The notes under the pieces are model-generated. The model ran no database searches, was not told the origin of the DNA, and worked only from the letters and a program-made list of their open reading frames with translations. Shown one piece after another: positions 9,907 through 57,778 of a stretch of DNA of 64,000 nt (the first letter of the stretch is position 1; each line of letters opens with the position of its first letter). The translations under genes were made by a program, and so were the position numbers. Source of the DNA: an uncultured Candidatus Saccharibacteria bacterium (GTDB taxonomy: Bacteria; Patescibacteriota; Saccharimonadia; UBA4664; CAYXHD01); the NCBI GenBank assembly GCA_964585425.1, contig CAZPDI010000001.1, positions 4,804 through 68,803 of the forward strand, read 5' to 3'.

Positions 9907-9936
9907 TTGACATTACTATCACTTGGGAAGATAATA
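9907..9936 (+). promoter_or_regulatory. Candidate promoter of GC-rich cassette 1a
   Basis: TTGACA (9907-9912), an 18-nt spacer, then ATAATA (9931-9936). A 5' stem-loop TGAGCGT/ACGCTCA at 9948-9966 follows. Confidence 0.5.
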
Positions 9937-9977
9937 TCACACATGTTTGAGCGTCTCTGACGCTCAGATAGAAACCC

Positions 9978-10318
9978 GACAAAGCCAACCTACTACCCCG
10001 AAAGAGGTCCCGTGACCAAAATCACGAACCGCAGCATCGCTCCTGCTGGCAGCATCTCCCAGATCGCTCAGCTCCACCAGGACGGAGAGATCGACCGCGA
10101 CCAGACCACTCAGGTGATCGAAGTGGTTGCGGAACATGCCGCAGAGGCGCCAAACACCTGTCCGCGCTGTCAGCGCGCCAACTGCCCAGTGACGAGGGGC
10201 GGCAACTGCCAGTTGCCAGACATGAAGGTGGTGGATCACCTGGTTCGTCAGCTGCAGACCTCCAACTGATCTCGAGTCGGTCCTATGGGATCGAGGGGCG
10301 ACGAGGCTTGGCTTTGTC
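9978..10318 (+). repeat. 11-bp perfect inverted repeat bracketing cassette 1a (leader versus 3' hairpin loop)
   Basis: GACAAAGCCAA at 9978-9988 and TTGGCTTTGTC at 10308-10318. The 3' copy lies in the loop and 3' arm of the hairpin GGGGCGAC(10295-10302)/GTCACCCC(10316-10323). Confidence 0.7.
10012..10269 (+). CDS. GC-rich ORFan, 85 aa, with a C-terminal Cys cluster (CPRCQRANCPVTRGGNC)
   Basis: GTG start 5 nt after the SD AAGAGG. GC3-rich codons. No recognisable family. Confidence 0.55.
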   Translation: MTKITNRSIAPAGSISQIAQLHQDGEIDRDQTTQVIEVVAEHAAEAPNTCPRCQRANCPVTRGGNCQLPDMKVVDHLVRQLQTSN

Positions 10319-10335
10319 ACCCCCTTATAAAATAG

Positions 10336-10364
10336 TTGACTTTACATGATTATTAAAGTATAGT
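10336..10364 (+). promoter_or_regulatory. Candidate promoter of GC-rich cassette 1b
   Basis: TTGACT (10336-10341), a 17-nt spacer, then TATAGT (10359-10364), inside an AT-rich 80-nt spacer between two GC-rich ORFs. Confidence 0.6.
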
Positions 10365-10403
10365 TATTGTCATGCTTGCATACGAAGTATGCGCGCACCT
10401 TAC

Positions 10404-11207
10404 GACAAAGCCAACAACTACACCGAAAGGGGTCCCGATGGGATCTTCTGGAATTCTGGGGTTTCCCAAGGCTGCACACCGCGCCCCCACCATCAGCGAG
10501 GGGTACCAGGAGTACGTCGAGGAGATGACCGGCCTGGCCGTGTGCATGATCTGCGATAGCGGAACATGCCCCGGCGCCAGTGGACGCGCTTGCCCCTATG
10601 AACTCGACGTCTGCACCGTCTGCTGGCAGCTCGACTGCATTAGCGTCTTCGGTCACGACTGCCCTTCGGAGGAACGCTGCAACAACTGCGGTCACCTCCG
10701 GAACGAATTCGGCCATTACAGCAACTGCTCAATGCCCACAATGAAGCTGTGCGACGAGTGCGGGAGCGCAACCTGTCGCGTCAACCCGCCAAAGGAAATG
10801 CGAGAGGAGTACCCGTCGGACTACAATCCGTACTGGGATGACCACCACAGCATCTTCGATACGCTGGGCTGCCTCTTGGGTAGCCCGATCAGCGAGGAAG
10901 AACGGATCGCGGAAGAGATCGCATCGTGTTGGGCTCCGCGCACCGACCAGATGTCCCGAGATCGAGTACGGCAACAGATGCTGAGAACATGGATTGATCG
11001 TGATCTGGACAAAGCAGCTGAGGAAGCTCAGCAGCGCGCCGACCAGATGTCCCAGTCCATGCATCAGCTCACCGAGCTTGCGGACGACTACGACGACGGA
11101 CTGATCTCCGAGAACGTGGTTCTGATGCTCCTCCGGGCTGATCATCGCGGTGTACGGCTCTCCGGGTGACCTTTGAGGGTCGGTGAGCGTCAAGGCTTGG
11201 CTTTGTC
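10404..11207 (+). repeat. Second copy of the same 11-bp inverted repeat pair, bracketing cassette 1b
   Basis: GACAAAGCCAA at 10404-10414 and TTGGCTTTGTC at 11197-11207. The 3' copy lies in the hairpin GGTGAGCGTC(11182-11191)/GTCACTCACC(11205-11214), whose 13-nt loop aAGGCTTGGCTTT is conserved. Confidence 0.7.
10438..11169 (+). CDS. GC-rich ORFan, 243 aa, Cys-rich N-terminal half (14 Cys, four CxxC pairs) and acidic helical C-terminal half
   Basis: The start was moved to ATG 10438, behind the SD GAAAGGGG; the track start 10372 lies in the promoter. CxxC pairs are CMIC, CTVC, CNNC and CDEC. No family recognised. Confidence 0.55.
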   Translation: MGSSGILGFPKAAHRAPTISEGYQEYVEEMTGLAVCMICDSGTCPGASGRACPYELDVCTVCWQLDCISVFGHDCPSEERCNNCGHLRNEFGHYSNCSMPTMKLCDECGSATCRVNPPKEMREEYPSDYNPYWDDHHSIFDTLGCLLGSPISEEERIAEEIASCWAPRTDQMSRDRVRQQMLRTWIDRDLDKAAEEAQQRADQMSQSMHQLTELADDYDDGLISENVVLMLLRADHRGVRLSG

Positions 11208-11275
11208 ACTCACCTAAGTGTATATACACGATAAATACATTTAGGTGAGTATTATTAAGATAAACACAACTTCTA

Positions 11276-11304
11276 TTGACAAATAGGGTTTAGTTTGCTA
11301 TACT
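11276..11304 (+). promoter_or_regulatory. Candidate promoter of GC-rich cassette 1c
   Basis: TTGACA (11276-11281), a 17-nt spacer, then TATACT (11299-11304). Confidence 0.65.
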
Positions 11305-11365
11305 TATGCGCAATCTGGTGGAACACCCATCCGATAGAACACAGACCACAACCCAAGGAAAGCCC

Positions 11366-12103
11366 ATGTCTCAGCTCGTCATCGTCCAGGGCCCCAAGCC
11401 CCGCACGTCCGCGGTGTCCGACAAGGATGCCCACAACCTCCGCCTCCAGGCGGACAAGGTGCTGGCCAGGCACCGCGGTGATCTCCCCCAGGAGATCGTC
11501 ACGCAGCTGACCAGCCCGATGCCCGGCATCGTGGGCATGGGACTGCACGACGCGGCCTCCTGGATCAAGCAGCGCACCGCCAACCTCAAGCTGCAGTACG
11601 TGCAGCAGCACCCCGACTGCGAGGCGGCCATGGCCCTCAAGACCCGAGTCGACAACGTCCTCAACGGCGAGTTCGGCGACAAGGTCAAAAAGAGCCTCGA
11701 CATGCGTGGTCAGCGCATCCTCGAGCTGGACCTGTACCAGATCTTGAGCACCGACCAGCTGAAGAGCTTCGCCCACTTCGTCAAGAAGGCCGAGGCAGTC
11801 GAGGGTCGCTTGCAGACCGAGAAGGCACGCAAGGCGGTGCCGGCCCAATCGCTCCAGATGCTGTTCCCGTCCAAGGAGAAGCGCGAGCGCAAGCCGAAGA
11901 AGGTCAAGCCGGCCTACGCCGGTCTCCCCGCACCGTCCACCGGGATCGTCACCGACTGGAAGAGCGACGTCGGCAGCGTCGGTGCCCCGAACCCCCAGGG
12001 TCCGGCGCCGGCACGCGGCGTCACCCTCCGCAAGTCCGACAAGGCTCGCGCCAAGGGAGTGAAGGGTGGTGGCGTCAAGACCCGTCCGGGGCGACGCAAC
12101 TGA
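11366..12103 (+). CDS. GC-rich ORFan, 245 aa, with a Lys/Arg/Pro/Gly-rich basic C-terminal tail
   Basis: The start was moved to ATG 11366, behind the SD AAGGAAAG; the track start is 11306. The tail reads KEKRERKPKKVKP..KARAKGVKGGGVKTRPGRRN. No family recognised. Confidence 0.55.
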   Translation: MSQLVIVQGPKPRTSAVSDKDAHNLRLQADKVLARHRGDLPQEIVTQLTSPMPGIVGMGLHDAASWIKQRTANLKLQYVQQHPDCEAAMALKTRVDNVLNGEFGDKVKKSLDMRGQRILELDLYQILSTDQLKSFAHFVKKAEAVEGRLQTEKARKAVPAQSLQMLFPSKEKRERKPKKVKPAYAGLPAPSTGIVTDWKSDVGSVGAPNPQGPAPARGVTLRKSDKARAKGVKGGGVKTRPGRRN

Positions 12104-12119
12104 CCAGTTGATCTGCGTT

Positions 12120-12153
12120 CCCCGAGTCATGACATCGTCGTCATGGCTCGGGG
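12120..12153 (+). terminator. GC-rich hairpin closing cassette 1c, convergent with the uvrA 3' end
   Basis: CCCCGAGTCATGAC-atcgtc-GTCATGGCTCGGGG forms a 14-bp stem with one G-U pair. No clear U tract follows. Confidence 0.5.
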
Positions 12154-12163
12154 GATCAACACT

Positions 12164-15016
12164 TTATGACTTATTAGAAAATATACGATTCAAGTAAATA
12201 CCGGTATGGCTGCCTTTTACTTTGGCGACTTTTTCGGGGGTACCTTCGGCTATAACGGTACCGCCACCAGCACCACCTTCGGGGCCCATGTCGACGAGCC
12301 AGTCGCTGGATTTGATGATGTCCAGATTATGTTCGATAATCAGCACTGAGTTACCAGTATCGACGAGACGGTTGAGAACCTGCAGGAGACGTCGGACGTC
12401 TTCGAAGTGCAGACCGGTAGTCGGTTCGTCGAGGATGTAGAGAGTTTTACCGGTGCTACGGCGGCTTAGCTCGGAGGCGAGTTTAATACGCTGAGCTTCG
12501 CCACCACTAAAGGTTGTGGCTGATTGACCGAGGTGAATATAGCCCAGGCCGACATCATTAAGGGTTTCGAACTTGCGGCGAATGGCTGGAATGTTTTCGA
12601 AGAACGCCACCGCTTCTTCGACAGTCATGTCCAAGACTTCGCTAATGTTTTTACCTTTATAACGAATTTCTAAGGCTTCACGGTTATAACGTTTGCCCTT
12701 ACATTCGTCGCAGGTTACATAAACGTCTGGCAAGAAGTGCATTTCGATCTTGATAATACCGTCACCACGGCAGACTTCGCAGCGCCCACCCTTGACGTTA
12801 AAACTAAAGCGCCCGGCTTTATACCCACGAATCTTGGCTTCGGGCGTGGATGCAAATAATTCACGAATGTTGCTAAAGACGCCAGTGTAGGTAGCCGGAT
12901 TAGATCGCGGTGTGCGACCGATTGGCGATTGATCAATACTGATGACTTTGTCCAGATTCTTGAGGCCTTCAATGTCATCGTGTTTGCCAGGAACATCGCC
13001 GGCTCGATGATATACTTGCGCGAGTTTCTTGGAAAGAATGTCGTTAATCAGGCTTGACTTACCAGAGCCCGACACACCGGTAACCGTCGTCATCATGCCC
13101 AGAGGCAATGATACATCGATGCCTTTAAGATTATGCTCGCGGGCATTTTTAATAACTAAGTGCTTGCCATTGCCTGGTCGGCGCTTTTTAGGTATCTCAA
13201 TTTTACGAGCACCACTAATGTACTGGCCGGTTAAACTTTCTTTAACTTTGGCAACTTCGTCTGGCGTACCGGCAGCCACCACGTTACCGCCGTGTTTACC
13301 AGCAGCTGGGCCGATATCGATCACGTAATCGGCCGTGCGGATAGTGTCTTCGTCGTGTTCGACGATAATGACGGTATTACCAAGATTGCGTAGACGCTCC
13401 ATGGTGACGATCAACCGATCATTGTCGCGTTGGTGCAGACCAATGCTTGGTTCGTCCAGGATGTAGAGTACGCCCATCAGACTGGAGCCAATTTGCGTAG
13501 CCAAACGAATACGCTGAGCCTCGCCACCAGCTAGGGTGTTAGCACTGCGATCAAGCGTAAGGTATTGCAGGCCAACATCCTGCAAAAAGCTCAGACGCGC
13601 GCAAATCTCTTTCATGATTTGTTTGGCAATCACTTGATCTTTTTCGCTAAGTTCCAAGCCATCGAAGAACTCTACAGCGTCGCCAATACTATAGGTTGTC
13701 ACATCCGCGATGTTTTTACCGTTGACGGTAACGGCCAACACTTCGGGCTTGAGGCGCTTGCCTTCACACACCGGACAAGGACGTTCGGCCATGTACTTTT
13801 CGATTTCCTTGCGCACAAAGTCACTATCGGTGTCATGATATCGTCGCTCCATATTGGGAATGACGCCCTCAAATGTTGACTGATAGGTACGGCCGCCTGG
13901 ACCGCGTACTGGAATCTTCTCGTCCCCTGTTCCGTACAAAATCGTCTTGAGGTCGTTGGGTTTCATGGCGTTTACGGGCGTATCAATACTAAATCTAAAC
14001 TTATTAGCCACACCATTGAGTAGTTTGGTATACCACGTCATCCGACTCGTAGTACGACTCCATGGGCGAATAGCTCCTTCGTTAATGCTGAGGCGACGAT
14101 TTGGGATGACAAGCTCAGGGTCAACTTCTAAGCGTATACCAAGTCCCGTACAGTGCGGGCAGGCACCATGCGGTGAGTTAAAACTAAAGTTACGGGGAGC
14201 AATTTCTGGAAAACTGATCTCGCGGTGCACCGGACAGGCAAAGTGCTCGCTAAAGTCTTTTTCTTCATCAGTATCCACAAAGTGAACCTTAACGATGCCG
14301 TCACCCAGGCCCAACGCTTGTTCCACCGATTCGCTCAATCGCTTAACGACATCTTCGGCAATAACCAATCGATCGACGATGGCCTCTACGGTGTGCTTTT
14401 TTTGTTTATCGAGATCCGGGAATTCATCAATATCATATAGAGTGCCGTTAACCCGCAAGCGCGAATACCCAGCTTTTTTAAGTTCTTGCACGACACCGCG
14501 ATGCTCGCCCTTTTTGTCGCTAACTACTGGCGCAATAATCATGATTTTAGAATCTTGCGGGGATTTCATGATTTGGCTCACAATTTGATCGGCCGATTGT
14601 TTGGTGACTTCGCGACCGCAGACGGGACAATGTGGCACGCCAACGCGCGCGTACAAAAGACGCAAATAATCATAAATTTCCGTAACGGTACCAACCGTAC
14701 TGCGCGGATTACGGCTCGACGATTTTTGATCAATAGAAATCGCTGGGCTCAGACCGTCAATTTGATCGACGTCTGGTTTTTCCATAAGACCCAAAAACTG
14801 CCGGGCGTAGGCACTTAGGCTCTCGACGTAACGGCGCTGACCTTCGGCATAAATGGTATCGAATGCCAAGCTAGACTTGCCTGATCCAGAAAGGCCAGTA
14901 ATAACGACCAGCTTATCGCGTGGAATCTCCACGTTAATATTTTTGAGATTATGCTCCCGGGCACCACGAACTACGATTTTGTCATGCATAACAGACGGTT
15001 CTCCACGGTGACTCAC
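12164..15016 (-). CDS. uvrA: Excinuclease ABC subunit A
   Basis: 950 aa with two ABC ATPase modules ([18 protein letters not shown]) and zinc-finger Cys clusters. The true start may be the internal Met at 14989. Confidence 0.95.
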
Positions 15017-40415: not shown

Positions 40416-40417
40416 TC

Positions 40418-42231: not shown

Positions 42232-42233
42232 TC

Positions 42234-42467: not shown

Positions 42468-42479
42468 TCGCGCCCCTGT

Positions 42480-42523
42480 GGGGACTTTTCTACGGAAAGG
42501 TCCCTGCGGGGGATCTTTCGTTT
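42480..42523 (+). terminator. Conserved 44-nt terminator element, copy B
   Basis: The element reads GGGGACTTTTCTACGGAAAGGTCCCTGCGGGGGATCTTTCGTTT. It is identical to copy A except for one inserted base. Confidence 0.65.
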
Positions 42524-42534
42524 TTAAATGAGAA

Positions 42535-42558
42535 AGACCCAGGATTTCTCCTAGGTCT
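42535..42558 (-). terminator. Hairpin with GAAA tetraloop terminating the minus-strand 143-aa cassette
   Basis: On the minus strand: AGACCTAGGA-gaaa-TCCTGGGTCT, a 10-bp stem with one G-U pair, followed by TTCTCATTT. Confidence 0.55.
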
Positions 42559-42603
42559 AGGGGCCAGGGATTCGACTACCCTGCACCCCCATCCACAACC
42601 TGT

Positions 42604-43035
42604 TCACGCCTGCATATCAGGCGGCAAGGTGAAGGCGTCAGGGTACGAGATGACCAGATCATTATCGTTCAACGGATAGATCGCGCCCCAGTCCGTAAGC
42701 ACGAACCGTTCGCAGAACGTCTGATCCACAGCACGAGCATACGCTGGTATATCACGCAGATCGTCTTTCGTCAGCTCTTGCCCCCAGTAAAAGGTCCCTT
42801 TGTCATGAGAGTTGTGAGTAACGACCTTGTCATCAGGACATATGAATGTGTAGATCTCTGTGAAATCAAAGCCGATAGCCCCTTGCTGGTGCTTAACCCC
42901 GAGAGGGTCACGGCCTGCCGTGACGATGGCATCAACTCGAGACAACACGCCAGTCGGGTATATGTAGCGAGCCACCAACAACTTGGTGGCGACCACGTCG
43001 ATGTGCTTGGTCTGGCTTTCACCCTCGGTATCCAT
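42604..43035 (-). CDS. ORFan, 143 aa, intermediate GC, own promoter and terminator
   Basis: ATG follows the leader ..CCAACCAACGAAGGGG, which carries the SD. No motif recognised. Confidence 0.5.
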   Translation of the reverse strand: MDTEGESQTKHIDVVATKLLVARYIYPTGVLSRVDAIVTAGRDPLGVKHQQGAIGFDFTEIYTFICPDDKVVTHNSHDKGTFYWGQELTKDDLRDIPAYARAVDQTFCERFVLTDWGAIYPLNDNDLVISYPDAFTLPPDMQA

Positions 43036-43076
43036 GATGCGCCCCTTCGTTGGTTGGACTTGAAAAGGATAGTTGC

Positions 43077-43105
43077 ATAATACTCCCGGCAGTTCACTGC
43101 CGCAA
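43077..43105 (-). promoter_or_regulatory. Candidate promoter of the 143-aa cassette
   Basis: On the minus strand: TTGCGG (43105-43100), a 17-nt spacer, then TATTAT (43082-43077). Confidence 0.45.
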
Positions 43106-43119: not shown

Positions 43120-43545
43120 CTAGAGCCCCTCTATAAATGTCTCGATAAAGCTATTCAGCTTGCTGCCAACTCGAGTAATGATCGAGTCTCGCTCCAAAAT
43201 CTTGGGCTTAGCTATTAATGTAGCGGCAATCTCATTGCGGCGTGGCTTGCGGCCAGTGAATAAGTAATCGTTAATCAGTTTTTGCAATTCATCGGTCATT
43301 AGACCTTCTTCAACACACATGGCCTCAAAAGCTTTAGCGCGCTCGACATTCCAGAACGAATCAAACTCACCAGCTACATCTTCAGGATTCTCGATCTTGG
43401 GTAGCGATCGGGCAATAAATTTCTCAATCAGCTCGCGCTTGCTACGCAGCACGGCATTGCCCATAAGCGTGTTATTAAGATTATCGATTATCTGAGCTTT
43501 TTTTGATCTTCCGACATAACCCCTCGCTTTGTGTCTATTGTACAC
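43120..43545 (-). pseudogene. hsdR: Fragment resembling the C-terminal domain of a type I restriction enzyme R subunit (EcoR124-type HsdR)
   Basis: 141 aa. LRSKRELIEKFIARSLPKI..FDSFWNVERAKAFEAMCVEEGL..LINDYLFTGRKP..KLNSFIETFIEGL matches my memory of the HsdR C-terminal domain. The helicase and nuclease body is absent. Confidence 0.55.
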
Positions 43546-43577
43546 GTTTTCTTCTAATGTTTATATCTGTCGCCATC

Positions 43578-43606
43578 TTGACATATCGCTTGTGCTAGCA
43601 TATTAT
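43578..43606 (+). promoter_or_regulatory. Strong orphan promoter in the hsdR-fragment / NYN intergenic gap
   Basis: TTGACA (43578-43583), a 17-nt spacer, then TATTAT (43601-43606). Confidence 0.6.
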
Positions 43607-43612
43607 ACGTAT

Positions 43613-43690
43613 ATCCAATGGTTGTACCATTCAACTGTCGGGGAATTACATCCGAGAGCGACCTTCTTTAAAGAGGGTCGTTATTTTTTT
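43613..43690 (+). ncRNA. Candidate small RNA of about 78 nt (promoter to intrinsic terminator, no convincing ORF)
   Basis: Downstream of the promoter above lie an internal hairpin AATGGT-tgt-ACCATT and a terminator CGACCTTCT-ttaa-AGAGGGTCG (43659-43680). The run TTATTTTTTT follows. Confidence 0.4.
43659..43690 (+). terminator. Intrinsic terminator (plus-strand orientation)
   Basis: A 9-bp stem with one G-U pair, loop TTAA, then TTATTTTTTT. It overlaps the stop codon of the minus-strand NYN gene. Confidence 0.6.
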
Positions 43691-44229
43691 GCGCGGTACA
43701 CCAGCGGCTTGCCCCAAATATCCTCACTTATTCTCAAAATATCAATGTAGCCATCGCCCCCTGTAAGAAGTTCACTAGATACATTATTTTTAGATGATAC
43801 AATATATACTTTTTTATCACGATTGCGGATAAAACTCACAAGTTCGAGGAAGTCTGAGTCGCCACTAAACAGGACGGCCACATCGTACGAATTGACTAGG
43901 GCTACAGCATCAATGGTAAGCTCAACATCCATATTACCCTTTTCAATAATTAATCCACTACCAGTTTTTATCTGCTTGAGTGGTTTTTTGCGGACTATAT
44001 ATCCCATTCTTTTTTGCAGTGCAGTGTAGAAAGAATGCTTATTCGAAACACTATACTCTCGAGTACCAACCTCGGGATAGGCATCATAATAGTAAATCTC
44101 TAATACACTTGCATGGTATTTTACTTTCAGATAGTTTTTGAGTTTTTTCATATCTAAAAGAACCCCTTTGGTCTTTTGGGCCTGCCAGAGATTAGAGGCA
44201 TCAATAAAAACGTGAACTCTTTTATTCAT
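43681..44229 (-). CDS. NYN-domain (LabA/DUF88-like) protein
   Basis: The start was moved to Met19 (44229). VHVFIDASNL..GNMDVELT..FSGDSDFLELV matches the LabA-like NYN pattern. Confidence 0.65.
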   Translation of the reverse strand: MNKRVHVFIDASNLWQAQKTKGVLLDMKKLKNYLKVKYHASVLEIYYYDAYPEVGTREYSVSNKHSFYTALQKRMGYIVRKKPLKQIKTGSGLIIEKGNMDVELTIDAVALVNSYDVAVLFSGDSDFLELVSFIRNRDKKVYIVSSKNNVSSELLTGGDGYIDILRISEDIWGKPLVYRAKK

Positions 44230-44393
44230 ATCATTAATTATACGGTATTTGTTCGGTATTAGTCGAGGCCGTAATGTCCCCACCGTGTCCGTTCTTCAAA
44301 GTGGGGTTTTTGAGCTCGAGAAAGTCGATGATGGGTTGGATACCTACCTTGGCCGAAGTAGTAACTTCTAGGCCTTTATCATTTATGTAGTGC

Positions 44394-44422
44394 TTGCTTT
44401 TTTATAAGTTTTATGCTAGTAT
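44394..44422 (+). promoter_or_regulatory. Candidate promoter of GC-rich cassette 4
   Basis: TTGCTT (44394-44399), a 17-nt spacer, then TAGTAT (44417-44422). Confidence 0.45.
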
Positions 44423-44457
44423 ATACGCATCTTGGCCGTCTAGCAAAAGGAAACATC

Positions 44458-44868
44458 ATGCCAAGCGCACAGACCATCCTCCCTCTGACCGCCGAACAGG
44501 TGGCCATGCCCGTGACCGCTGCCATCCTCACCACGGAGGACATCATCGGCGACCACGGGAGGTACCCGAAGGACATCGCTCACAGCTTGTCCACCATCTG
44601 CGAGTTCCTGCAGGAGGTCAAGCGGGAGGTCAAGCAGAGTCCAAGGGCCTACCTCGGCTGGTTGGAGTTGGCGGATGAGAACGGGGTGCGCTTCAGCGAG
44701 CGCGATTACCCCAGCATCACCGCAGGGTTCCTCCTGGCCGTGATGGAATCCAGCGCCGCCTGGGGCACCGTGATGAAGCACGGTCCGGAGGACTACTGCT
44801 TCGAGCAGCTGAACATGCTGAGGACGGCGGTCTACGCCCTCCTCTTCAAGCGGTCGCTGGCTGGCTGA
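44458..44868 (+). CDS. GC-rich ORFan, 136 aa
   Basis: The start was moved to ATG 44458, behind the SD AAAAGGAAA; the track start 44413 lies in the promoter. No motif recognised. Confidence 0.55.
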   Translation: MPSAQTILPLTAEQVAMPVTAAILTTEDIIGDHGRYPKDIAHSLSTICEFLQEVKREVKQSPRAYLGWLELADENGVRFSERDYPSITAGFLLAVMESSAAWGTVMKHGPEDYCFEQLNMLRTAVYALLFKRSLAG

Positions 44869-44893
44869 GGTTCTTCCTCCGCCAGCACCACGC

Positions 44894-44940
44894 CCCACTC
44901 GGGGTCTTCTACGGAAGACTCCGAGTGGGTTTTTCGTTTA
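44894..44940 (+). terminator. Intrinsic terminator with C(UACG)G tetraloop closing cassette 4
   Basis: CCCACTCGGGGTCTTC-tacg-GAAGACTCCGAGTGGG forms a 16-bp stem with one G-U pair, followed by TTTTTCGTTTA. It is convergent with typA. Confidence 0.75.
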
Positions 44941-44944
44941 TGCC

Positions 44945-46883: not shown

Positions 46884-47258
46884 GTGCACCTCACTAATCC
46901 AAGTCGCCGCCGAACTGATTCTGACGTGGTCATGCTGGTTCGTACGCCAGGTGGCCACCTGGCTGTGCTGGTCTTTACTGCTACAGCCCGTGGACAACGC
47001 CTTCGTCTGGATAGTCAAACATGGAATGGTGTGACGTTTGACGATATGGATGACGCCATCAAAGCGCTCCAGGAAACGGCCGACGCTCACTTGATTACCG
47101 AGAACAACCGTGTGACGGACACGTTGCTTCATGCCAATCCATTGGATTCGCACTTCTTCTTGATGGAGCCCTGGGATCACAAACGCTTCATCGAAGCGAT
47201 CAAACGGGATGGTCTGTTCGATTGTCAGCGTCCGGTGTTCACACCCGTCACCCGCTGA
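46884..47258 (+). CDS. ORFan, 124 aa, moderately GC-enriched
   Basis: GTG start follows the SD AAAGGGGAAG. No motif recognised. Confidence 0.45.
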   Translation: MHLTNPSRRRTDSDVVMLVRTPGGHLAVLVFTATARGQRLRLDSQTWNGVTFDDMDDAIKALQETADAHLITENNRVTDTLLHANPLDSHFFLMEPWDHKRFIEAIKRDGLFDCQRPVFTPVTR

Positions 47259-47269
47259 TTTCAGTAGCA

Positions 47270-47320
47270 CCCACCTACGACAAGCCCACCGCTGGTTGTA
47301 GGTGGGCTTCGTCGTTTATA
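47270..47320 (+). terminator. Hairpin region with two alternative pairings after the 124-aa ORFan
   Basis: CCCACCTAC (47270-47278) can pair with GTAGGTGGG (47298-47306). Alternatively ACGACAAGCCCACC (47277-47290) pairs with GGTGGGCTTCGTCGT (47301-47315). TTTATA follows. Confidence 0.45.
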
Positions 47321-47326: not shown

Positions 47327-48412
47327 TTAGATGTTGTAGACAGGTTTGCCGAGAGCACGACCAACGGCTTGCGTAAGAGCACCCATGCCCATAATGTACA
47401 CCGCCATACCGGCAAAGATATTTAGCACCGGTACGAGATAAACCAGCAAGACTACGAGTGAACCGACGGCCATGATTACTAGCGGCTGATGCGAGTCTTG
47501 CAGTAATTTTCGACCGACAACGTAGGCTACCACCGGCCCAGACAAAATGCCAGCTCCTGCCCATACTATTCCAAGCAACAGAGCTAATGGAATGCCGACT
47601 ATTGTTACCAGGAGCAAGACCAAGACAAAAGGAAGTAAAAAGGTGGTTATGAGGCCAATGGCCAAGGTTTTGCTAGGTTTGGTTAGCACCAACTCCGCTA
47701 ACCCATTAAAGCGACGAGGAGCTACTATCACCAGCAGCATAGCAGTAATGAACATCATTAAATTAATGAAGAACAAGAAGCCCAGCCCAGCTTTAGGCGC
47801 GCTCTCTTTTGCTGATTCCTTGGCTTTGTTGTCTGGCGATTTGACCTGATTTACGGTTCCGTCCACCGAACCGGCGGAGACTGTTAAGTCATCGGTGCGG
47901 GCATCGAAATTACGAGCAACGTTGCCGGTAACTGTAACGGTAGCCCCGGCAGCATAAGCATCACGCGCTAGATTACCGGCTACCAAAACACTGGATCCGG
48001 CCAGTGTGGCGTCACCGCCAATTTTGGCATCTGGTTCAACGCTAACACTCTGGCCGGCTAGACTAATGGCACGCTGCACAGTGCCCGCTATACTCACGCT
48101 TTGGCCCGCAGCTCTGACACTGCCGTTAACCGTACCGCCGATTCTCACCTCTTGACCGGCGCACATCACATCGCCGTTAACCGTGCCGGTAACAAATACC
48201 GTTTTACCTGCACAAAATACATCGCCGTTAACTGTGCCCGCAATAGTAACGGTACTACCGGTAACAAATAAACTATGATCCACCACTTCCGTCGGTGATA
48301 CGACTGTATTGGTTCCAGATCGATATGGTTGATTGGCTGCTACAGCTACGCCGCCAAAGACAAAAATAGCCAACACCGCTGTAAGTGTCGACGTGAATGC
48401 TAATCGCTTCAT
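47327..48412 (-). CDS. Bactofilin-like (polymer-forming, DUF583-type repeats) protein fused to a polytopic membrane domain
   Basis: 361 aa with a signal/TM N-terminus, repeated GTVNGDV / G.V.G.V beta-helix units and about four C-terminal TM helices. Confidence 0.6.
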   Translation of the reverse strand: MKRLAFTSTLTAVLAIFVFGGVAVAANQPYRSGTNTVVSPTEVVDHSLFVTGSTVTIAGTVNGDVFCAGKTVFVTGTVNGDVMCAGQEVRIGGTVNGSVRAAGQSVSIAGTVQRAISLAGQSVSVEPDAKIGGDATLAGSSVLVAGNLARDAYAAGATVTVTGNVARNFDARTDDLTVSAGSVDGTVNQVKSPDNKAKESAKESAPKAGLGFLFFINLMMFITAMLLVIVAPRRFNGLAELVLTKPSKTLAIGLITTFLLPFVLVLLLVTIVGIPLALLLGIVWAGAGILSGPVVAYVVGRKLLQDSHQPLVIMAVGSLVVLLVYLVPVLNIFAGMAVYIMGMGALTQAVGRALGKPVYNI

Positions 48413-50709: not shown

Positions 50710-50789
50710 GTTATTAGTATAGCAGTGGGAGCACCTAGGTTAAAAACAACTTTTCTGGTTATTGCGACTAATTCGCAGTAAGTAAAAAT

Positions 50790-51470
50790 CTACTTTTTTA
50801 GAGTCCTCTGGAACAAACGATGCCAGCGCCAAAACGCACCAATACCCTTAATGGTGGTAGCCGTATGATTACCAACATTGTAGCGATGCACCTTCATGCC
50901 AGGTAAAGCCGTAATAAGTAACTCGGTATTAGTAGGCGGAATAACAGTGTCTTTTTGTGAATAGATCAGATACACCGGACGCCCATCAAGCAACCCCATA
51001 TCTTTGAGCGGTTCGACCGGACTTAGCTCTTGTGAAAGCTGCGTGAAATCATAACCATTCTTTGTATATGCTGGTTTAAAAGATTTGCCGGCCGGGCTCT
51101 TCCAGATAAATCGCGCAATTGAACCACGAGCTGTCACTAAGGCGGCGGCTCGCAATTGTGGCGTATGCTTGAGCGCGTACAGTGCACTCTCGGAGCCTAA
51201 CGAGTTCCCCATCGTGTAGGACGGAATATCTTTTGGCAAGGTTGCAAGCGTAGCGGCGATATCGCGCTGAACAGCCTCAATCTGCCCAACGTAGGCCATA
51301 ATGTTAGAGGATACTACCGTTTGCGAATCCAGCACATAGGCATAGACTCGGTAGCCGAGCAGTCGCATCATCCAGTAGGCTGGCAGATAGGTGCCAATCC
51401 TCGTACGGTAGCCACCGATAAAAAAGATGACGCGACGCCTGGACAAACCAAACTGGCGCCGCTCAAACAT
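50790..51470 (-). CDS. Alpha/beta hydrolase fold protein
   Basis: 226 aa with the nucleophile elbow GNSLGS and a length and pattern consistent with a small alpha/beta hydrolase. Confidence 0.5.
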   Translation of the reverse strand: MFERRQFGLSRRRVIFFIGGYRTRIGTYLPAYWMMRLLGYRVYAYVLDSQTVVSSNIMAYVGQIEAVQRDIAATLATLPKDIPSYTMGNSLGSESALYALKHTPQLRAAALVTARGSIARFIWKSPAGKSFKPAYTKNGYDFTQLSQELSPVEPLKDMGLLDGRPVYLIYSQKDTVIPPTNTELLITALPGMKVHRYNVGNHTATTIKGIGAFWRWHRLFQRTLKK

Positions 51471-53646: not shown

Positions 53647-54582
53647 TTATTTAGTAAAGTAGGTGGTCTTTACCAGGGTATAGACTTTTGATCCCAGCGG
53701 GATAAGCAACAATACGATGCCGAGCCCAAGCAAGTAATAGGTTTGGCTGTTAAAGGTGGCAATGAAGGCGTTGTAGACATTTTCTACGACGATACGCAAG
53801 TTCTGCTGGTTGACCTGAGCCAATACTGGCGGCTTAAACAATGGACCGACCAAGAGTGCCAGCAAGCCTGCGGTTGAGACAGCGATACCCTGCCCGACCA
53901 GTAACTTGTTAGTTGGATAGCGTTTTTTCACATGTGGCCAGACCAGCAAGAAGAGCGCCAACAGGAAGGCTAATGGTGCTACAAAGGTCAGCACTACACC
54001 AGCCTGATAGAATGATGGGATCTTATCGATATTTTTAAAGATAGTAATAGTGTCAGGTACTTGATCAACCTTAACTACCGCTTCATCCTTATTAGCCAAG
54101 GTCAGCAACTTGGTAATGGTGGTTTTGATACCGCTTAGATCATAGGTGATTGGCTCTGGTCGCTTAGAGGTAAACAAGATCTGCACTTTACCCACTACGG
54201 CATTCAGAGCATTCTGCGCTTGCTGAGTATTAAGCAATCCAGCAATAAAGTTGGTGGCTGGCTCGGCCACTACGGCACGAGCGGCTGGCTGGCTTTGCAA
54301 AGCGGTATCGACAATTTCGCCAGCTAGCGCATTACGGCTGCTTTGCGAGAGTAGTGCTTGACTGGTTACCGTAGTAAACTCCTTGGTATCAAACATCGTA
54401 CGGTTCACCCAAATAGCTGAGTTCGCCACTACTAAAAGCAGCGCAGCCAAGATGGTACTTAGAATAAAATTACGCTTCTTATGTGATTTCTTAGTTGGCG
54501 CAGCAACCGTCTGGCTGGCAACGGACTGAGTTTTTTTCTTTACAGGTGTTTTTGTTGTCTTCTTAGGTGCGGTCCTTGCCAT
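53647..54582 (-). CDS. Membrane hypothetical protein
   Basis: 311 aa with a Lys-rich N-terminus and TM helices at the N- and C-terminal parts. Confidence 0.45.
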   Translation of the reverse strand: MARTAPKKTTKTPVKKKTQSVASQTVAAPTKKSHKKRNFILSTILAALLLVVANSAIWVNRTMFDTKEFTTVTSQALLSQSSRNALAGEIVDTALQSQPAARAVVAEPATNFIAGLLNTQQAQNALNAVVGKVQILFTSKRPEPITYDLSGIKTTITKLLTLANKDEAVVKVDQVPDTITIFKNIDKIPSFYQAGVVLTFVAPLAFLLALFLLVWPHVKKRYPTNKLLVGQGIAVSTAGLLALLVGPLFKPPVLAQVNQQNLRIVVENVYNAFIATFNSQTYYLLGLGIVLLLIPLGSKVYTLVKTTYFTK

Positions 54583-54611
54583 AACAAATCCTTTTCTTGC
54601 TTTATAGCGCT

Positions 54612-54639
54612 ATTATACATCTATTTTCATAAATTGCGA
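54612..54639 (-). promoter_or_regulatory. Candidate promoter of the backbone gene 53647..54582; its sequence is repeated upstream of pyrC
   Basis: On the minus strand: TCGCAA-tttatgaaaatagatg-TATAAT, with a 16-nt spacer. Confidence 0.45.
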
Positions 54640-54642
54640 GCT

Positions 54643-54672
54643 GGCGCCGAGCGAGTCTTCCCGCCCGGCGCC
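54643..54672 (-). terminator. GC hairpin after pyrC
   Basis: GGCGCCG (54643-54649) pairs with CGGCGCC (54666-54672), a 7-bp GC stem 17 nt after the pyrC stop. No U tract. Confidence 0.45.
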
Positions 54673-54688
54673 AATCTCATGCTGCTGG

Positions 54689-55771
54689 CTACCCTGTCCA
54701 GCGCTGACGCTGCAGATCCTCTACCTGCCAACGCAACGTTTGTCCCGCCCGGAATGGCACCACCCCGCCGATCTCTTCAGGCACAGCCCAGGGGATCCTC
54801 GACAACAACACATAATTGTCGTCTTGTGGGGGCTCGACGCCGTAGAACTTGCAACCAGCAATGGAGACAAACTGCTCCAGCCTCTCCGGCCAGTCCTCCA
54901 GACCACTGTCCTCGAACAGTTCCGCCAGCACCGGCAGAGCAACTGGTCCGGAATACACGCCGTTGTTAGGCTTTGCCTTCAGCTTGTCCTCGATTCGATG
55001 AGGCGCCGAGTCGCTACCGAAGAAGATCTTGGGCGGATCACCCGGCTTGACACTGAGCATCGCAGCCAAGATGGCTTGACGATCTTCCTCGGTCTTGGCT
55101 CGCGGCAAACAGGCATGATGCGGCTGATCGATGACACCATCGTGCTCAACGTCATTAATGGTCAAGCATGGATGATGAGCCGTGATGGTGGCAGCGACGT
55201 TGGCCGGCAGCTCCATGATGAGGTTGATGGCATCGGCAGAAGAGACGTGCTCGAAGACGATTCGCAGACCCGGGAATGCCTCATGCACCTCCATGAACAG
55301 CTCGAGGAACATCTGCTCAGCATGAGCGAGATCGTCGGTTGAGACTTCGCCGTGCACGTTAAGCACGACATCAAGCTCCTGCATCACTTCAAATACTGGC
55401 CACCCGTCGTGGATATCCCGCAAACCAAAACCCGAATGAGTCGTGGTGTTGTACGGATAATACTTGACCGAACAGAATCCGTTGCGACGTTCGTACATCA
55501 GACGGATGATCGCTTCATCAGTGTCTGGCGTGAGGTACAAGGTCGGCCACAAGTTCACCATGTTCAGGCCTTTCAGCCCTGCCTGCACCTCTTGCAGATA
55601 GTGGAACGCATGCATAGCGTCACTTACTGGCACCGGGTTGAGGTTTGGCATGAGCAAGGCGTAATGGAGATGACCAATGCTGGGACGAACAACATCTTTC
55701 AGCAGACGTCCTTGACGAACATGAACGTGCCAATCGCTCGGACGACGCATCTTGAGTGCCAAGTAGGGCAT
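54689..55771 (-). CDS. pyrC: Dihydroorotase, short homodimeric (E. coli-like class II) type, GC-rich
   Basis: 360 aa. Motifs line up with E. coli PyrC as I remember it: KMRRPSDWHVHVRQG, MPNL, VKYYPYNTTT (carboxylated Lys position), HGEV, VFEHVSS, ATITAHH, FFGSDSAPH, FYG, VPFRAGQTLRW. Confidence 0.85.
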   Translation of the reverse strand: MPYLALKMRRPSDWHVHVRQGRLLKDVVRPSIGHLHYALLMPNLNPVPVSDAMHAFHYLQEVQAGLKGLNMVNLWPTLYLTPDTDEAIIRLMYERRNGFCSVKYYPYNTTTHSGFGLRDIHDGWPVFEVMQELDVVLNVHGEVSTDDLAHAEQMFLELFMEVHEAFPGLRIVFEHVSSADAINLIMELPANVAATITAHHPCLTINDVEHDGVIDQPHHACLPRAKTEEDRQAILAAMLSVKPGDPPKIFFGSDSAPHRIEDKLKAKPNNGVYSGPVALPVLAELFEDSGLEDWPERLEQFVSIAGCKFYGVEPPQDDNYVLLSRIPWAVPEEIGGVVPFRAGQTLRWQVEDLQRQRWTG

Positions 55772-55839
55772 GGTGAGTCCTTTCGGGACGTTGTGAGTGA
55801 ACGAACAAAGGTGTGCCTAAGCACACCTCCATAACCATT

Positions 55840-55867
55840 ACTATACACTATTATTCATAAATTGCGA
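55840..55867 (-). promoter_or_regulatory. Candidate pyrC promoter, near-duplicate of the 54612-54639 promoter
   Basis: On the minus strand: TCGCAA-tttatgaataatagtg-TATAGT. The shared string is GCTCGCAATTTATGAAnAATAGnTGTATA. A leader hairpin AGGTGTGC-ttag-GCACACCT follows. Confidence 0.45.
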
Positions 55868-55871
55868 GCGT

Positions 55872-55901
55872 CTGGGCCAGGGGAACTCTCCCCCGGCCCA
55901 G
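55872..55901 (-). terminator. GC hairpin after the pyrE-like gene
   Basis: CTGGGCCAGGGGA-actc-TCCCCCGGCCCAG forms a 13-bp stem with one mismatch. No U tract. Confidence 0.45.
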
Positions 55902-55923
55902 CGCGAACCGTTGAATACGGGGC

Positions 55924-56583
55924 TCAGGCTGCGAGTAACTGGACCCAGCCACCCTCGTACTGCGGGTTGACCTCATCGCGGTAGTGGGCACCGTGACCCA
56001 GCGCACCATCGACAACAATGGGCTTGCCAGCTTCACAGAGCGGACAAGCTTCGGCGTCGTAGGACGCGAAGTCCACGTGCGTCAGCTGCTCCAACCGGGG
56101 AACTCCGATGGCGTCAGCCTCCACACCGCCTCGGTTGCAGACGGCACTGATGCCGATCACCTCACCACCACAGGCTTCGATGGCCGCGCAGGTGCCCTGA
56201 ACCGAACTGCCAGTGGTCAGCAGATCCTCGATCACGAGAACGCGTTTGTTCTGCAGGTGCTGCGGGAAGCTCAGGCGATCGACCACGAAGTTGTTGCCCT
56301 CCTTGTCGGCCCACAGGCCAGGCACACGAAGACCCTTCTTGTGCAGTAGCCAGTTCGAGGCAGTGCTGGTGAGCGCCACGCCACCGGTTGCCGGTGATGC
56401 GACAACATCGAAACCGCCGTCGAATGGTCTGAGGAGATCCGAGACGATCTGGCTGAGCATCACTGGATCAGCGAAGATCGGGTCCATGCAGATGTAGCCC
56501 TCACCGTGTCCACCCTTCTTGTACACGAAGTGGTTGTCGAGAAAGACGGCTCCGACCTTCTGGAGGTACTCGAGAATGTCCAT
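55924..56583 (-). CDS. pyrE: Type I phosphoribosyltransferase, probable orotate phosphoribosyltransferase, GC-rich
   Basis: The start was moved to Met14 (56583), behind the SD AGGAA. The PRPP-binding motif is RVLVIEDLLTTGSS. The position between pyrC and pyrF supports the call. A C-terminal CPLCEAGKP motif is present. Confidence 0.6.
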   Translation of the reverse strand: MDILEYLQKVGAVFLDNHFVYKKGGHGEGYICMDPIFADPVMLSQIVSDLLRPFDGGFDVVASPATGGVALTSTASNWLLHKKGLRVPGLWADKEGNNFVVDRLSFPQHLQNKRVLVIEDLLTTGSSVQGTCAAIEACGGEVIGISAVCNRGGVEADAIGVPRLEQLTHVDFASYDAEACPLCEAGKPIVVDGALGHGAHYRDEVNPQYEGGWVQLLAA

Positions 56584-56631
56584 GTGCGTTCCTAACGTGA
56601 GACGAATGCGCCAACTGGTCACATCCGAATT

Positions 56632-56660
56632 ATTATCCTATTCATAAAAGTTATTTACAA
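56632..56660 (-). promoter_or_regulatory. Candidate promoter of the pyrE-like gene
   Basis: On the minus strand: TTGTAA-ataacttttatgaatag-GATAAT, with a 17-nt spacer. It shares TTTATGAATAG with the two promoters downstream. Confidence 0.45.
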
Positions 56661-56675
56661 GCATAAGTGTGTCGC

Positions 56676-56736
56676 CGGACGGGTGGGCAAAAAGTTTACA
56701 GTCCGAAGACCTTCTTCCTCCTCGCCCACCCGTCCG
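56676..56736 (-). terminator. Long hairpin after pyrF
   Basis: A perfect 13-bp stem joins CGGACGGGTGGGC (56676-56688) and GCCCACCCGTCCG (56724-56736), with a 35-nt loop that contains an inner mini-hairpin. Confidence 0.45.
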
Positions 56737-56742
56737 AGCATG

Positions 56743-57675
56743 TCAGGCCGCCAGGCGAACTCGCTCGATGGTCTCGTGCATGTTGGAGGCCTCAGCTTCC
56801 GACGCCTCAGCCGGAGCCAGACCCTCGTACTGCTGGTTGTCGTGAGCATGGGTGATGCCGCTCGAGGAGTTGATGGCGATGCCAGCCTGCTGGCTGTTGT
56901 GTCCGTTCTGGTAGGCGGCTGCAGCGTCACCGCCCTGCTTGTTTCCTACCCCAGGGATCAGGATCGGAACCTGCTCGCCAACACAACGACGAACGTTGGC
57001 AAGGTCGTCGATGGACTCGGGACTTGCGCCGGCCACCACACCGACGTTGCCTCGCTTGTTCCAGCCCTCCAGGCTGGCGACGTTCTGTGCGACTCGCTCG
57101 TACAGGAAGCCCTCCATAGTCACGCCCATGAGGGTTGACGAGCAGGTATCAAGCTTCTGGAACTCCTCGGCGCCAGGGTTGGATGTACGAGTCAGTACGA
57201 AGACCCCCTTGTCGCCACGGTCCAGCCACGGGGCCATGGCCTGTGCACCCATGTAGTTGTGGACGGTGACTGCATCAGCTCCGCAGACGTCGTAGGCGAA
57301 CGAGGCGTAGGTGTCATTGGTCGCTCCGATGTCGCCGGCCTTGAGGTCAAGGATCTTGACGACATCTGGCGCGTGGGTACGCATGTGCTTGAAGAGCAAC
57401 TCCAATGCCTGGATGCCTTCATGGCCATGCTTGAGGTAGAACCCCAAGTTGGGTTTCATCCAGCCGACTTTGCCGGCCAGGGCCTCGACGATCGGGAACA
57501 AGAAGGTGGTGAGCGTACCGCAGATGCTGGCCCGCTGGAAGCCCTCCGGGATGCGTGTGATCACCGGATCATCCTCGCGATAGGTGCTCTTGAGCGTTGG
57601 GTCGAGACCGGCGCAGACTGCACGGTGCTGCCCGGCGTTCAAGGCCACGAGCTCCGAAAAGCTGAGGTCGGACAT
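56743..57675 (-). CDS. pyrF: Orotidine 5'-phosphate decarboxylase, subfamily 2 (long form), GC-rich
   Basis: The start was moved to Met7 (57675), behind the SD GGAGAGGAG. Motifs are MKPNLGFY, the LDLKAGDIGATN signature (DxKxxDIxxT) and PGVGNKQGGD. Confidence 0.8.
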   Translation of the reverse strand: MSDLSFSELVALNAGQHRAVCAGLDPTLKSTYREDDPVITRIPEGFQRASICGTLTTFLFPIVEALAGKVGWMKPNLGFYLKHGHEGIQALELLFKHMRTHAPDVVKILDLKAGDIGATNDTYASFAYDVCGADAVTVHNYMGAQAMAPWLDRGDKGVFVLTRTSNPGAEEFQKLDTCSSTLMGVTMEGFLYERVAQNVASLEGWNKRGNVGVVAGASPESIDDLANVRRCVGEQVPILIPGVGNKQGGDAAAAYQNGHNSQQAGIAINSSSGITHAHDNQQYEGLAPAEASEAEASNMHETIERVRLAA

Positions 57676-57778
57676 GTCAGACTCCTCTCCCATCTGACGA
57701 TGAGATAGATTCGTGCGACCGAATTAGCCACATCCATATTAGTATGGTTTCTGGGACGCTTAAGAGCAAGCGTAAGAG

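Follow-up and report, generated by a model that had tools for sequence, protein, structure and literature searches.

GC-rich units between conserved genes of a Saccharimonadia chromosome

We analysed a 64,000-nt stretch of DNA from an uncultured bacterium (contig CAZPDI010000001.1; hereafter the window, whose positions serve as coordinates), in which 13 promoter-to-hairpin units, most of them GC-rich, sit between housekeeping genes. These units, which we call cassettes, contain 16 open reading frames (ORFs), 13 of them orphans and three of them pyr genes, and cover 10.1 kb, or 15.8% of the window. They lie in the slot between pepP and uvrA (island 1, units 1a to 1c), in island 3 (units 3A to 3C, with ORFs 3a to 3f), as the single-ORF units 2, 4, 5 and 6, and as pyrF, pyrE-like and pyrC units. 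The source organism belongs to the Saccharimonadia within the candidate phyla radiation (CPR), with an 80% identical UvrA in the closest species representative, which confirms the Saccharibacterial identity suspected in a first-pass annotation made from the letters alone. That annotation had counted 15 ORFs, one fewer than our recount, and four ORF starts were corrected (1b, 10438; 1c, 11366; unit 2, 30182; unit 5, 44458).

The mean GC content of the window, 0.492, divides into 0.577 within the units and 0.476 outside them. GC content at third codon positions (GC3) is 0.498 ± 0.056 in the backbone set of 56 genes, with a maximum of 0.62, whereas the cassette ORFs range from 0.64 to 0.90: 0.76, 0.73 and 0.90 in 1a, 1b and 1c; 0.84 in unit 2; 0.77, 0.71, 0.67, 0.73, 0.84 and 0.71 in 3a to 3f; 0.64 and 0.89 in units 4 and 5; and 0.66, 0.73 and 0.78 in pyrC, the pyrE-like gene and pyrF. 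The sole exception is unit 6, which at 0.58 falls in the backbone range and is compositionally not distinct. Because the 60- to 90-nt stretches between units drop to a GC content of 0.25–0.37, the composition steps are sharp; the first pass had proposed such a step at the unit edges from hand counts of single lines (37/60, 34/60 and 26/60), all of which were exact on recounting. The GC pressure extends to amino-acid usage, the ratio of GARP to FYMINK residues being 1.36 in the orphans and 1.38 in the pyr genes versus 0.97 in the backbone.

The + strand shows a negative GC skew (−0.049 when the units are left out), and the backbone genes lie almost all on the − strand. Against this backbone, ten of the 13 units run antisense to their neighbours and are therefore probably oriented head-on to replication. 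Head-on conflict as a general cause of the high GC was rejected, since the co-directional pyr genes are equally GC-rich.

A chimera of assembly or binning, in which GC-rich reads from the host were joined to a Saccharibacteria backbone, would also produce a composition step, and beyond this step nothing speaks for it. Three backbone/unit junctions were reproduced in independent per-run Logan assemblies (SRR13208896 and SRR13208893). Among the contigs of these runs, L081 is 100% identical to the window across 2,298 nt from the NYN gene into island 3, and L095 and L096 are 100% identical from the ABC-3 gene through the pyr units; at the pyrophosphatase/unit 2 junction, L083 agrees in gene content, with the pyrophosphatase gene next to an oppositely oriented gene of 124 aa. 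In addition, congeners with the same architecture came from eight or more further, unrelated samples. The chimera, refuted by junction-spanning contigs and by the layout shared with congeners, has practically no chance of being the explanation.

Architecture of the units

All 13 units end in a strong hairpin. The folding energies of the 3′ ends are −27 to −46 kcal/mol, with z-scores of −2.7 to −7.6, and no more than 0–2 of 200 shuffles folded equally well. Promoters were scored as matches out of 12, with random 130-nt windows as background and 30 backbone operon starts for comparison. A score of at least 10/12 was reached in four of the 13 units (0.9% of random windows) and of at least 9/12 in six (6.7%); the promoters of 1a, 1b, 1c and 3e are near-consensus (10–11/12), those of 3a and pyrE are good (9/12), and the remainder are mediocre. 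Since the backbone operon starts score alike (4/30 at 10/12 or more, 9/30 at 9/12 or more), the unit promoters are of native style. Of the shared layout described in the first pass, the hairpins and the autonomous transcription units between intact housekeeping genes were borne out, but a near-consensus promoter is present in only about half of the units.

Pfam scans of nearly all long ORFs of the window found no integrase, transposase, recombinase or reverse transcriptase, and the single tRNA of the window (3280–3365) adjoins no unit, in keeping with the earlier remark that no mobility genes accompany the units. The orphans had no family match in Pfam (0/13), NCBIfam (0/6 submitted) or PHROGs (0/10 submitted), and Rfam returned no RNA family in any unit leader.

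The strong promoters, Shine-Dalgarno sites and terminators of several units, together with third positions at which C exceeds G and both A and T are depleted, would agree with ordinary translational selection, that is, with very high expression and GC-ending optimal codons. We consider this quite unlikely, because the usually highly expressed genes for GAPDH, FBP aldolase, transketolase and BipA have a GC3 of 0.44–0.51, the amino-acid composition is shifted too, and the GC3 excess of recombining genes lies mostly in non-optimal codons (Lassalle et al., PMC4450053).

The pepP–uvrA slot

Island 1 lies on the + strand. Unit 1a (9907–10323) begins with a TTGACA-17-GATAAT promoter (9907–9935), followed by the leader motif GACAAAGCCAAC (9978–9989), an ORF for a Cys-rich protein of 85 aa (10012–10269) and a double hairpin (10277–10323; −28.4 kcal/mol) with the loop GGCTTGGCTTTGTC. 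Unit 1b (10336–11250) consists of a TTGACT-17-TATAGT promoter (10336–10364), the leader motif (10404–10415), an ORF of 243 aa with 13 invariant Cys (10438–11169) and two overlapping hairpins (11171–11250). In unit 1c (11276–12160), a TTGACA-17-TATACT promoter (11276–11304) precedes an ORF (11366–12103) for a 245-aa protein with a helical domain and then a disordered basic tail (...GGGVKTRPGRRN); its hairpin (12107–12160) brings the unit up against the stop codon of uvrA (12164).

The slot is filled differently in different relatives, whose contigs are given by L numbers. The order is 1a-like ORF, 1b, 1c and uvrA 3′ end in L084, where the 1b homolog (P0008) is 39% identical; pepP, 101-aa ORF, 254-aa 1c ortholog and uvrA in L085–L087; pepP, 94-aa ORF, a 339-aa protein with a new N-terminal domain and the same basic tail, and uvrA in L097; and 134-aa ORF, 263-aa 1c ortholog, 242-aa ORF and uvrA in L098–L101. 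Orthologs of 1c in L084, L085–L087 and L098–L101 are about 36–41% identical to that of the window, and L097 retains the basic C-terminal tail only. The UvrA proteins of L085–L087, L097 and L098 are 93.5–96% identical to that of the window, with the same gene order (in L085, L086 and L087: UvrA 93.5%, UvrB 91% and UvrC 89%). Despite the divergence of the cassette proteins their scaffolds are kept, namely the 13 Cys of 1b and the helical core and basic tail of 1c. GC-rich orphans occupy the slot in five of five lineages, with GC3 of 0.77–0.94, apart from the first, 94-aa ORF of L097 (0.56), against 0.46–0.56 in the neighbouring backbone; the 1c orthologs have 0.88–0.94 across the five lineages.

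Units 1a and 1b have a common leader, GACAAAGCCAAC...CCGAAAGRGGTCCC followed by the start codon, and a common 3′ hairpin, the loop of which, GGCTTGGCTTTGTC, is the reverse complement of the leader motif GACAAAGCCAAC. These sequences occur at 9978–9989, 10307–10318, 10404–10415 and 11196–11207, are kept in congeners (L084, 208–220 and 1131–1143; L097, 2415–2427), and bracket the 1b promoter as an inverted GGCTTGGCTTTGTC/GACAAAGCCAAC pair. They could serve in mRNA 5′–3′ end pairing or as a signal at the DNA level. An invertible 1b promoter was set aside, as only one junction and no invertase were seen and complementarity between the 5′ leader and the 3′ loop of the mRNA fits equally. A DNA-uptake sequence was likewise dismissed: GACAAAGCCAAC is ~4-fold enriched at ≤2 mismatches, but the backbone matches resemble coding GCC-AAA-GCC-AAG repeats. 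The intergenic modules of the island (hairpin, promoter and leader) align between units and between species; compared with L084, identity peaks at 0.75–0.88 in the modules and is 0.3–0.6 in the ORFs.

Age and exchange of the cassettes

We calculated a codon-identity excess, defined as identical codons at conserved residues minus the expectation under fully randomised synonymous sites. It was −0.01 to +0.13 for 1c/1b and +0.09 to +0.10 for pyrF/pyrE, compared with +0.07 to +0.18 for the backbone of the same genome pairs, indicating that 1c, 1b, pyrF and pyrE are as old as the backbone. Since their GC3 is still ~0.8–0.9 at this age, the GC-richness is a maintained equilibrium and not a recent foreign trace; under the substitution regime of the backbone the contrast would have decayed. 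The proteins diverge faster, with the 36–41% identity of 1c standing against 56–94% for the backbone, and the Nei-Gojobori ratio of nonsynonymous to synonymous divergence (ω) is ~1.1 for 1c and 0.55 for 1b, both upper bounds owing to the GC3 bias.

Island 3 (+ strand) consists of three units. Unit 3A (39972–40686) has a promoter at 39972–40001 (9/12), ORF 3a (40041–40415), the small, Pro-rich and basic ORF 3b (40418–40627), which is joined to 3a by GACTGATCATG, and copy 1 of a terminator module (40642–40686). Unit 3B (40688–41799) has a promoter-like site at 40688–40717 (8/12), ORFs 3c (40751–40984) and 3d (40981–41733) with an ATGA overlap, and module copy 2 (41746–41799). In unit 3C (41802–42526), a TTGCAA-17-TATAAT promoter (41802–41830) is followed by ORF 3e (41860–42231), by 3f (42234–42467), which is paralogous to 3b and likewise joined to its upstream ORF by GACTGATCATG, and by module copy 3 (42473–42526). 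The repeats of the island form families D1, D5, D6 and D11. A fourth member of the terminator family closes unit 5, with the same TCTACGGAA loop and TTTCGTTTAT tail and with stems that differ by compensatory changes. Through such leaders, hairpins, terminators and paralogs, the units are related to one another.

From approximately 40590 to 41788, island 3 is 0.9–1.0 identical to L091, while the flanking bipA has 83–85% nucleotide identity. ORFs 3c and 3d show a synonymous divergence (dS) of 0.08 and 0.27 (bipA and the bactofilin gene, 0.95–1.14), a codon-identity excess of +0.42 to +0.46 (bipA, +0.18) and an ω of ~0.28 (backbone, 0.03–0.05); by these measures, the two ORFs are much younger than the genome split with L091. 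The identity collapses within the terminator module that is present in three copies in the window, and beyond it L091 carries an unrelated GC-rich cassette, with a 153-aa ORF at the position of 3e/3f. This mosaic indicates that a block of ~1.2 kb, from 3b′ to 3d, was recently exchanged between species, with one breakpoint in the repeated terminator module. Two patches of ORF 3d (41048–41110 and 41328–41390) have ~70% identity to L091 in a block that is otherwise 93–100% identical, as would be seen with localised diversification or micro-mosaicism.

The pyr units lie on the − strand. The pyrF unit (56666–57760) has an ORF of 310 aa (56743–57675; pyrF_sub2 type) and a hairpin (56674–56736; −46 kcal/mol), and no convincing promoter could be placed, either here or in the first pass. 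The pyrE-like unit (55871–56660) has a TTGTAA-17-GATAAT promoter (56660–56632), an ORF of 219 aa (55924–56583) and a hairpin (55871–55905). The pyrC unit (54611–55869) has promoter copy 1 (55839–55869), an ORF of 360 aa (54689–55771; pyrC_dimer type) and a hairpin (54640–54678); promoter copy 2 (54611–54641), which forms repeat family D17 with the first, drives the next backbone gene. Their products are a dihydroorotase (pyrC_dimer type), a pyrE-like phosphoribosyltransferase of the Thermus type and a pyrF protein of subfamily 2, of which the first two score below the curated cut-offs.

In the relative L094, whose BipA is 96% identical, pyrF and pyrE follow the ABC-3 gene as in the window; they are 66% identical and have GC3 of 0.87 and 0.83. 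L094 has one copy of the pyrC-flanking promoter and no pyrC, and pyrC of the window lies exactly between the two copies. A cassette found only in L094 (GC3 0.78) is placed exactly between a terminator and a promoter that adjoin in the window. These arrangements show that units can be gained or lost precisely between terminator and promoter, or between duplicated promoter copies. Taken together, the alignments show that slots and regulatory modules are conserved among congeners, and that the ORFs within them diverge very fast or are replaced by unrelated ORFs.

In the pyrC leader (55809–55828, − strand), a short GC hairpin and UUUGUUCGUU behind it precede the Shine-Dalgarno site; the element, for which Rfam gave no match, is attenuator-like and might confer pyrimidine-responsive control. 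An operator-like palindrome, CTTATTGCAA...TCGCAAT, recurs in three promoter regions rich in AT (3120–3211, 50759–50802 and 60228–60310), and the promoters of pyrC and of the gene at 53647–54582 contain a related half-site, GCTCGCAATTTATGA. As one of the three regions is the divergent promoter of znuA and a Fur-family gene, the element is probably a Zur/Fur-type box. Where the window has the Fur-family regulator, L094 (5846–6562) has a heliorhodopsin gene and a short-chain dehydrogenase gene between the DUF1295 gene and znuA.

Origin of the cassettes

The six largest orphans were searched exhaustively with HMMER against 1.84 billion protein representatives (1a, 2, 3b/3f, 3c, 4 and 6 were outside this search), which gave 20 matches in total, 2–7 per family. 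Ten of the relatives were looked up for genomic context; all those with readable flanking backbone genes lie in congeneric Saccharibacterium chromosomes, with homologous families in the same slots. The orphans had no homolog in 50,697 phage records or 72,556 plasmids, four cassette families had no relative in IMG/VR, and in JGI metagenome contigs the 1c family was represented by a single short locus. The relatives of PyrF have 66–50% identity and then ≤42%, and those of PyrC 61%, 49% and then a plateau of 36–45% that includes other CPR phyla; no actinobacterial donor was found among the relatives of either.

The first-pass annotation had favoured import from an actinobacterial host or its phages, that is, recent acquisition from a high-GC donor by transformation, with the composition not yet ameliorated. 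In favour of such a donor are the atypical composition with its shifted amino-acid usage (GARP/FYMINK 1.36 vs 0.97), the competence of Saccharibacteria and their life on Actinomycetota (PMC11665869), and the absence of pyrC and some cassettes from a relative. However, no homolog was found among phages, plasmids, IMG/VR or PHROGs, the 20 matches from 1.84 billion representatives are congeneric wherever the flanks can be read, and same-locus orthologs are synonymously saturated and still have GC3 of 0.88–0.94 in five lineages. The nearest pyrF and pyrC relatives, at 66% and 61% identity, are followed by a plateau at ≤44%, which for pyrC includes other CPR phyla. A high-GC donor is therefore very unlikely. 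Relatives that carry the same genes with the same composition had been named in the first pass as the mark of an ancient, vertically inherited trait, and this is largely what we found, with synonymous sites saturated like those of the backbone; cassette content does differ between relatives, as had been anticipated, pyrC and some cassettes being lineage-variable.

Repeated import from a GC-rich replicon that the Saccharibacteria themselves carry and that has escaped sampling (a plasmid, a phage or an integrative element) would give a stable GC3 without any special chromosomal force, and is consistent with the recent movement of the 3b′–3d block and with units that bring their own promoters and terminators. 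Against it, the homologs with flanking genes are all chromosomal, with homologous families in the same slot, and the divergence of 1c, 1b, pyrF and pyrE keeps pace with that of the backbone. Moreover, the AT-rich regulatory modules are in the promoter style of the backbone, natural plasmids are not known from these organisms (PMC11665869), and none of the four families tested (0/4) was present in IMG/VR. We regard this source as unlikely. Still less can be said for prophage remnants or morons in the strict sense: the promoter-ORF-terminator layout and the composition unlike that of the neighbours would match, but the window contains no phage structural, replication or integrase genes, no PHROG, phage or IMG/VR homologs were found, and every relative has syntenic housekeeping genes on either side, making this reading extremely improbable.

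In a more distant Saccharibacterium (L004; 36% GC), a 2.6-kb segment near uvrA (12101–14750) has 52% GC, and could be rRNA or a similar GC-rich island.

Remaining units and neighbouring genes

Unit 2 (30089–30607, +) has a weak promoter-like site at ~30089–30117 (8/12), an ORF of 124 aa (30182–30556) and a hairpin (30562–30607). Unit 4 (42535–43095, −) has an ORF of 143 aa (42604–43035), its own terminator (42535–42558) and a weak promoter-like site at ~43060–43090. Unit 5 (44390–44941, +) has a weak promoter, an ORF of 136 aa (44458–44868), for which one relative was found, and a terminator (44894–44941); in L094, the bipA-adjacent slot holds an orphan non-homologous to unit 5, with GC3 of 0.91. 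Unit 6 (46884–47316, +) has an ORF of 124 aa (46884–47258) and a hairpin (47270–47316). The ortholog of unit 6 in L091 is 65–66% identical, and its saturated dS and an ω of 0.09 indicate vertical inheritance.

Between island 3 and bipA (43120–44283) lies a low-GC defence hot spot, where 141 aa remain of the R subunit of a type I restriction system (EcoR124_C only), together with a NYN-domain gene; L091 carries a Vsr, restriction enzyme and Dcm methylase system at 2079–4576 (GC3 0.34–0.39). At 36035–37580, 2.5 kb from island 3, a gene for an extracytoplasmic function (ECF)-type sigma factor (Sigma70_r2, r4_2) is followed by two small genes without known family, which may be an anti-sigma pair. 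The bactofilin-domain gene (47327–48412) contains a tandem 51-nt repeat (71% identical) at 48147–48248.

A lineage-specific pool of cassettes

We propose, with a probability of roughly 0.55, that the units belong to a lineage-specific pool of autonomous GC-rich cassettes, kept in conserved slots of one Saccharibacteria genus and turned over by homologous recombination in the manner of minimal mobile elements (MMEs). Each unit is a small transcription unit of its own, in which a sigma-70 promoter of native style is followed by a conserved leader carrying a Shine-Dalgarno site, by one ORF or two and finally by a strong terminator hairpin, and the units take up a limited set of intergenic slots. 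Inheritance would be vertical with rapid divergence, with occasional exchange or replacement among congeners. For the turnover, natural transformation followed by homologous recombination via conserved flanking genes and repeated promoter and terminator modules, with no dedicated recombinase, would be the most economical mechanism, given the lack of mobility genes, the conserved flanks and repeated modules, and the competence known in the class. Cultivated Saccharibacteria are naturally competent (PMC11665869); the evidence for competence comes from these cultivated members, and the competence genes of the present organism are outside the window.

The high GC may come from a force tied to the gene class, for which GC-biased repair of heteroduplexes formed in recombination is the leading candidate and selection on mRNA the alternative; recombining bacterial genes are richer in GC3 (PMC4450053). 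The orphan proteins, which fall into Cys-scaffold, helical-domain and basic C-terminal-tail proteins, may be host-interaction or arms-race factors, as suggested by their hypervariability on conserved scaffolds, by the basic C-terminal tails of 1c, 3b and 3f and by the antagonism between Saccharibacteria and their Actinomycetota hosts (PMC13622651).

Several points weigh against this proposal. Its weakest step is the cause of the high GC: the effects of GC-biased gene conversion (gBGC) in bacteria are reportedly smaller than the contrast here, which runs from a GC3 of 0.5 to 0.9 and is sharp at the ORF ends. In addition, pyrF and pyrE share the GC-richness although they are ordinary enzymes, evolve under purifying selection and run in the direction of the backbone, so that an arms race cannot explain the whole class. 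The congeners compared are few and mostly represented by short contigs; units 2 and 4, both outside the exhaustive HMMER search, yielded no relative; and AlphaFold models of the orphan proteins had no structural neighbour. Finally, the Nei-Gojobori dS is biased at a GC3 of ~0.9, and the ω of ~1 for 1c is therefore an upper bound.

Two other readings deserve mention. The cassettes could be tuned to a high-GC host and not derived from it, each being a self-sufficient expression unit with a sigma-70/SigA-type promoter, a strong Shine-Dalgarno site and a terminator that works in the host after transfer, for instance through the class-wide essential type IV secretion system, as a bacterial analogue of T-DNA. 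If so, the Actinomycetota-like codon usage at equilibrium would serve expression in the host, and the pyr genes would resemble auxiliary metabolic genes that raise the host's pyrimidine output; we hold this to be very improbable. In a weaker version, a dedicated local conversion or mutagenesis that drives GC may diversify the cassettes, bounded by the promoter and terminator modules.

The units bear on how composition is read. Atypical composition is routinely taken as a sign of recent foreign origin, and this inference fails here. A GC3 of ~0.8–0.9 in a genome at ~0.5, in several species and with saturated synonymous sites, means that a force specific to the gene class must hold the composition, be it biased repair in recombination, mRNA-level selection or a factor linked to the epibiotic way of life. 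Naming that force would inform the evolution of bacterial base composition and the use of detectors of horizontal gene transfer on CPR genomes. Furthermore, ~16% of the region consists of autonomous, fast-evolving orphans with conserved modules in an obligate epibiont that is fought by its hosts, which provides a short, testable list of candidate host-interaction genes, and natural transformation makes knock-outs possible in cultivated Saccharibacteria.

Comparison with known systems

In the literature that was searched for such a gene class, no description was found. The units share with classical genomic islands an atypical composition (GC3 0.64–0.90 vs 0.50 ± 0.06). Unlike such islands, they have no integrase, the one tRNA is distant, and of flanking repeats only the promoter duplicated around pyrC (D17) was seen; orthologs occupy the same loci in congeners, no donor homologs were found, and only pyrC and some cassettes are lineage-variable. 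They also differ from diversity-generating retroelements, as the scanned ORFs of the window encode no reverse transcriptase domain and the repeat families are unlike a pair of template and variable repeats.

Integrons, and clusters of attC sites lacking integrases (CALINs), resemble the units in their tandem small, mostly orphan ORFs, each with an imperfect inverted repeat at its 3′ end, and in their strain-variable content. In contrast, the window has no IntI or any other tyrosine recombinase, the present cassettes carry promoters of their own, which integron cassettes usually lack, and the units are scattered over many slots and not gathered in one array. The hairpins, judged by shape, are near-perfect GC stems with T-rich tails and thus terminator-like. 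Phage morons are likewise autonomous promoter-ORF-terminator units in a conserved backbone, with deviating composition and variable presence. Here, however, the backbone is cellular (pepP/uvrA, pyrophosphatase/HAD, NYN, bipA and ABC-3), the window holds no phage genes, and the units are without phage homologs, syntenic and as old as the backbone.

As described for gBGC (PMC4450053), genes that have undergone recombination show a higher GC3, and optimal codons do not explain the effect. The contrast seen here differs in that, at ~0.4 in GC3, it exceeds the effects reportedly described for bacteria, is confined to promoter-to-terminator units and includes ordinary enzymes (pyrF and pyrE).

The system most like the present one is that of the MMEs of Neisseria (Saunders & Snyder 2002; Snyder et al. 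2007; as described in PMC3787668), in which different whole-gene cassettes occupy one site between conserved flanking genes in close relatives. We found this at the pepP–uvrA slot (five lineages), at the bipA-adjacent slot, downstream of island 3 and at the pyrE/g53647 junction. As in MMEs, no mobility genes are encoded by the elements (by Pfam, in nearly all long ORFs of the window), cultivated members of the class are naturally transformable, gain, loss and replacement can be explained by homologous recombination in the flanks, and many functions are unknown. A candidate footprint of such recombination is the single clear mosaic block with a breakpoint in a repeated terminator module. The present cassettes depart from MMEs in being mono- or bicistronic with their own promoter and terminator, in having regulatory modules that are repeated and conserved, with the breakpoint within one of them, and in forming a GC-rich compositional class that is stationary over long divergence. 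Many of them are, moreover, orthologous but hyperdivergent between relatives, and not merely present or absent.

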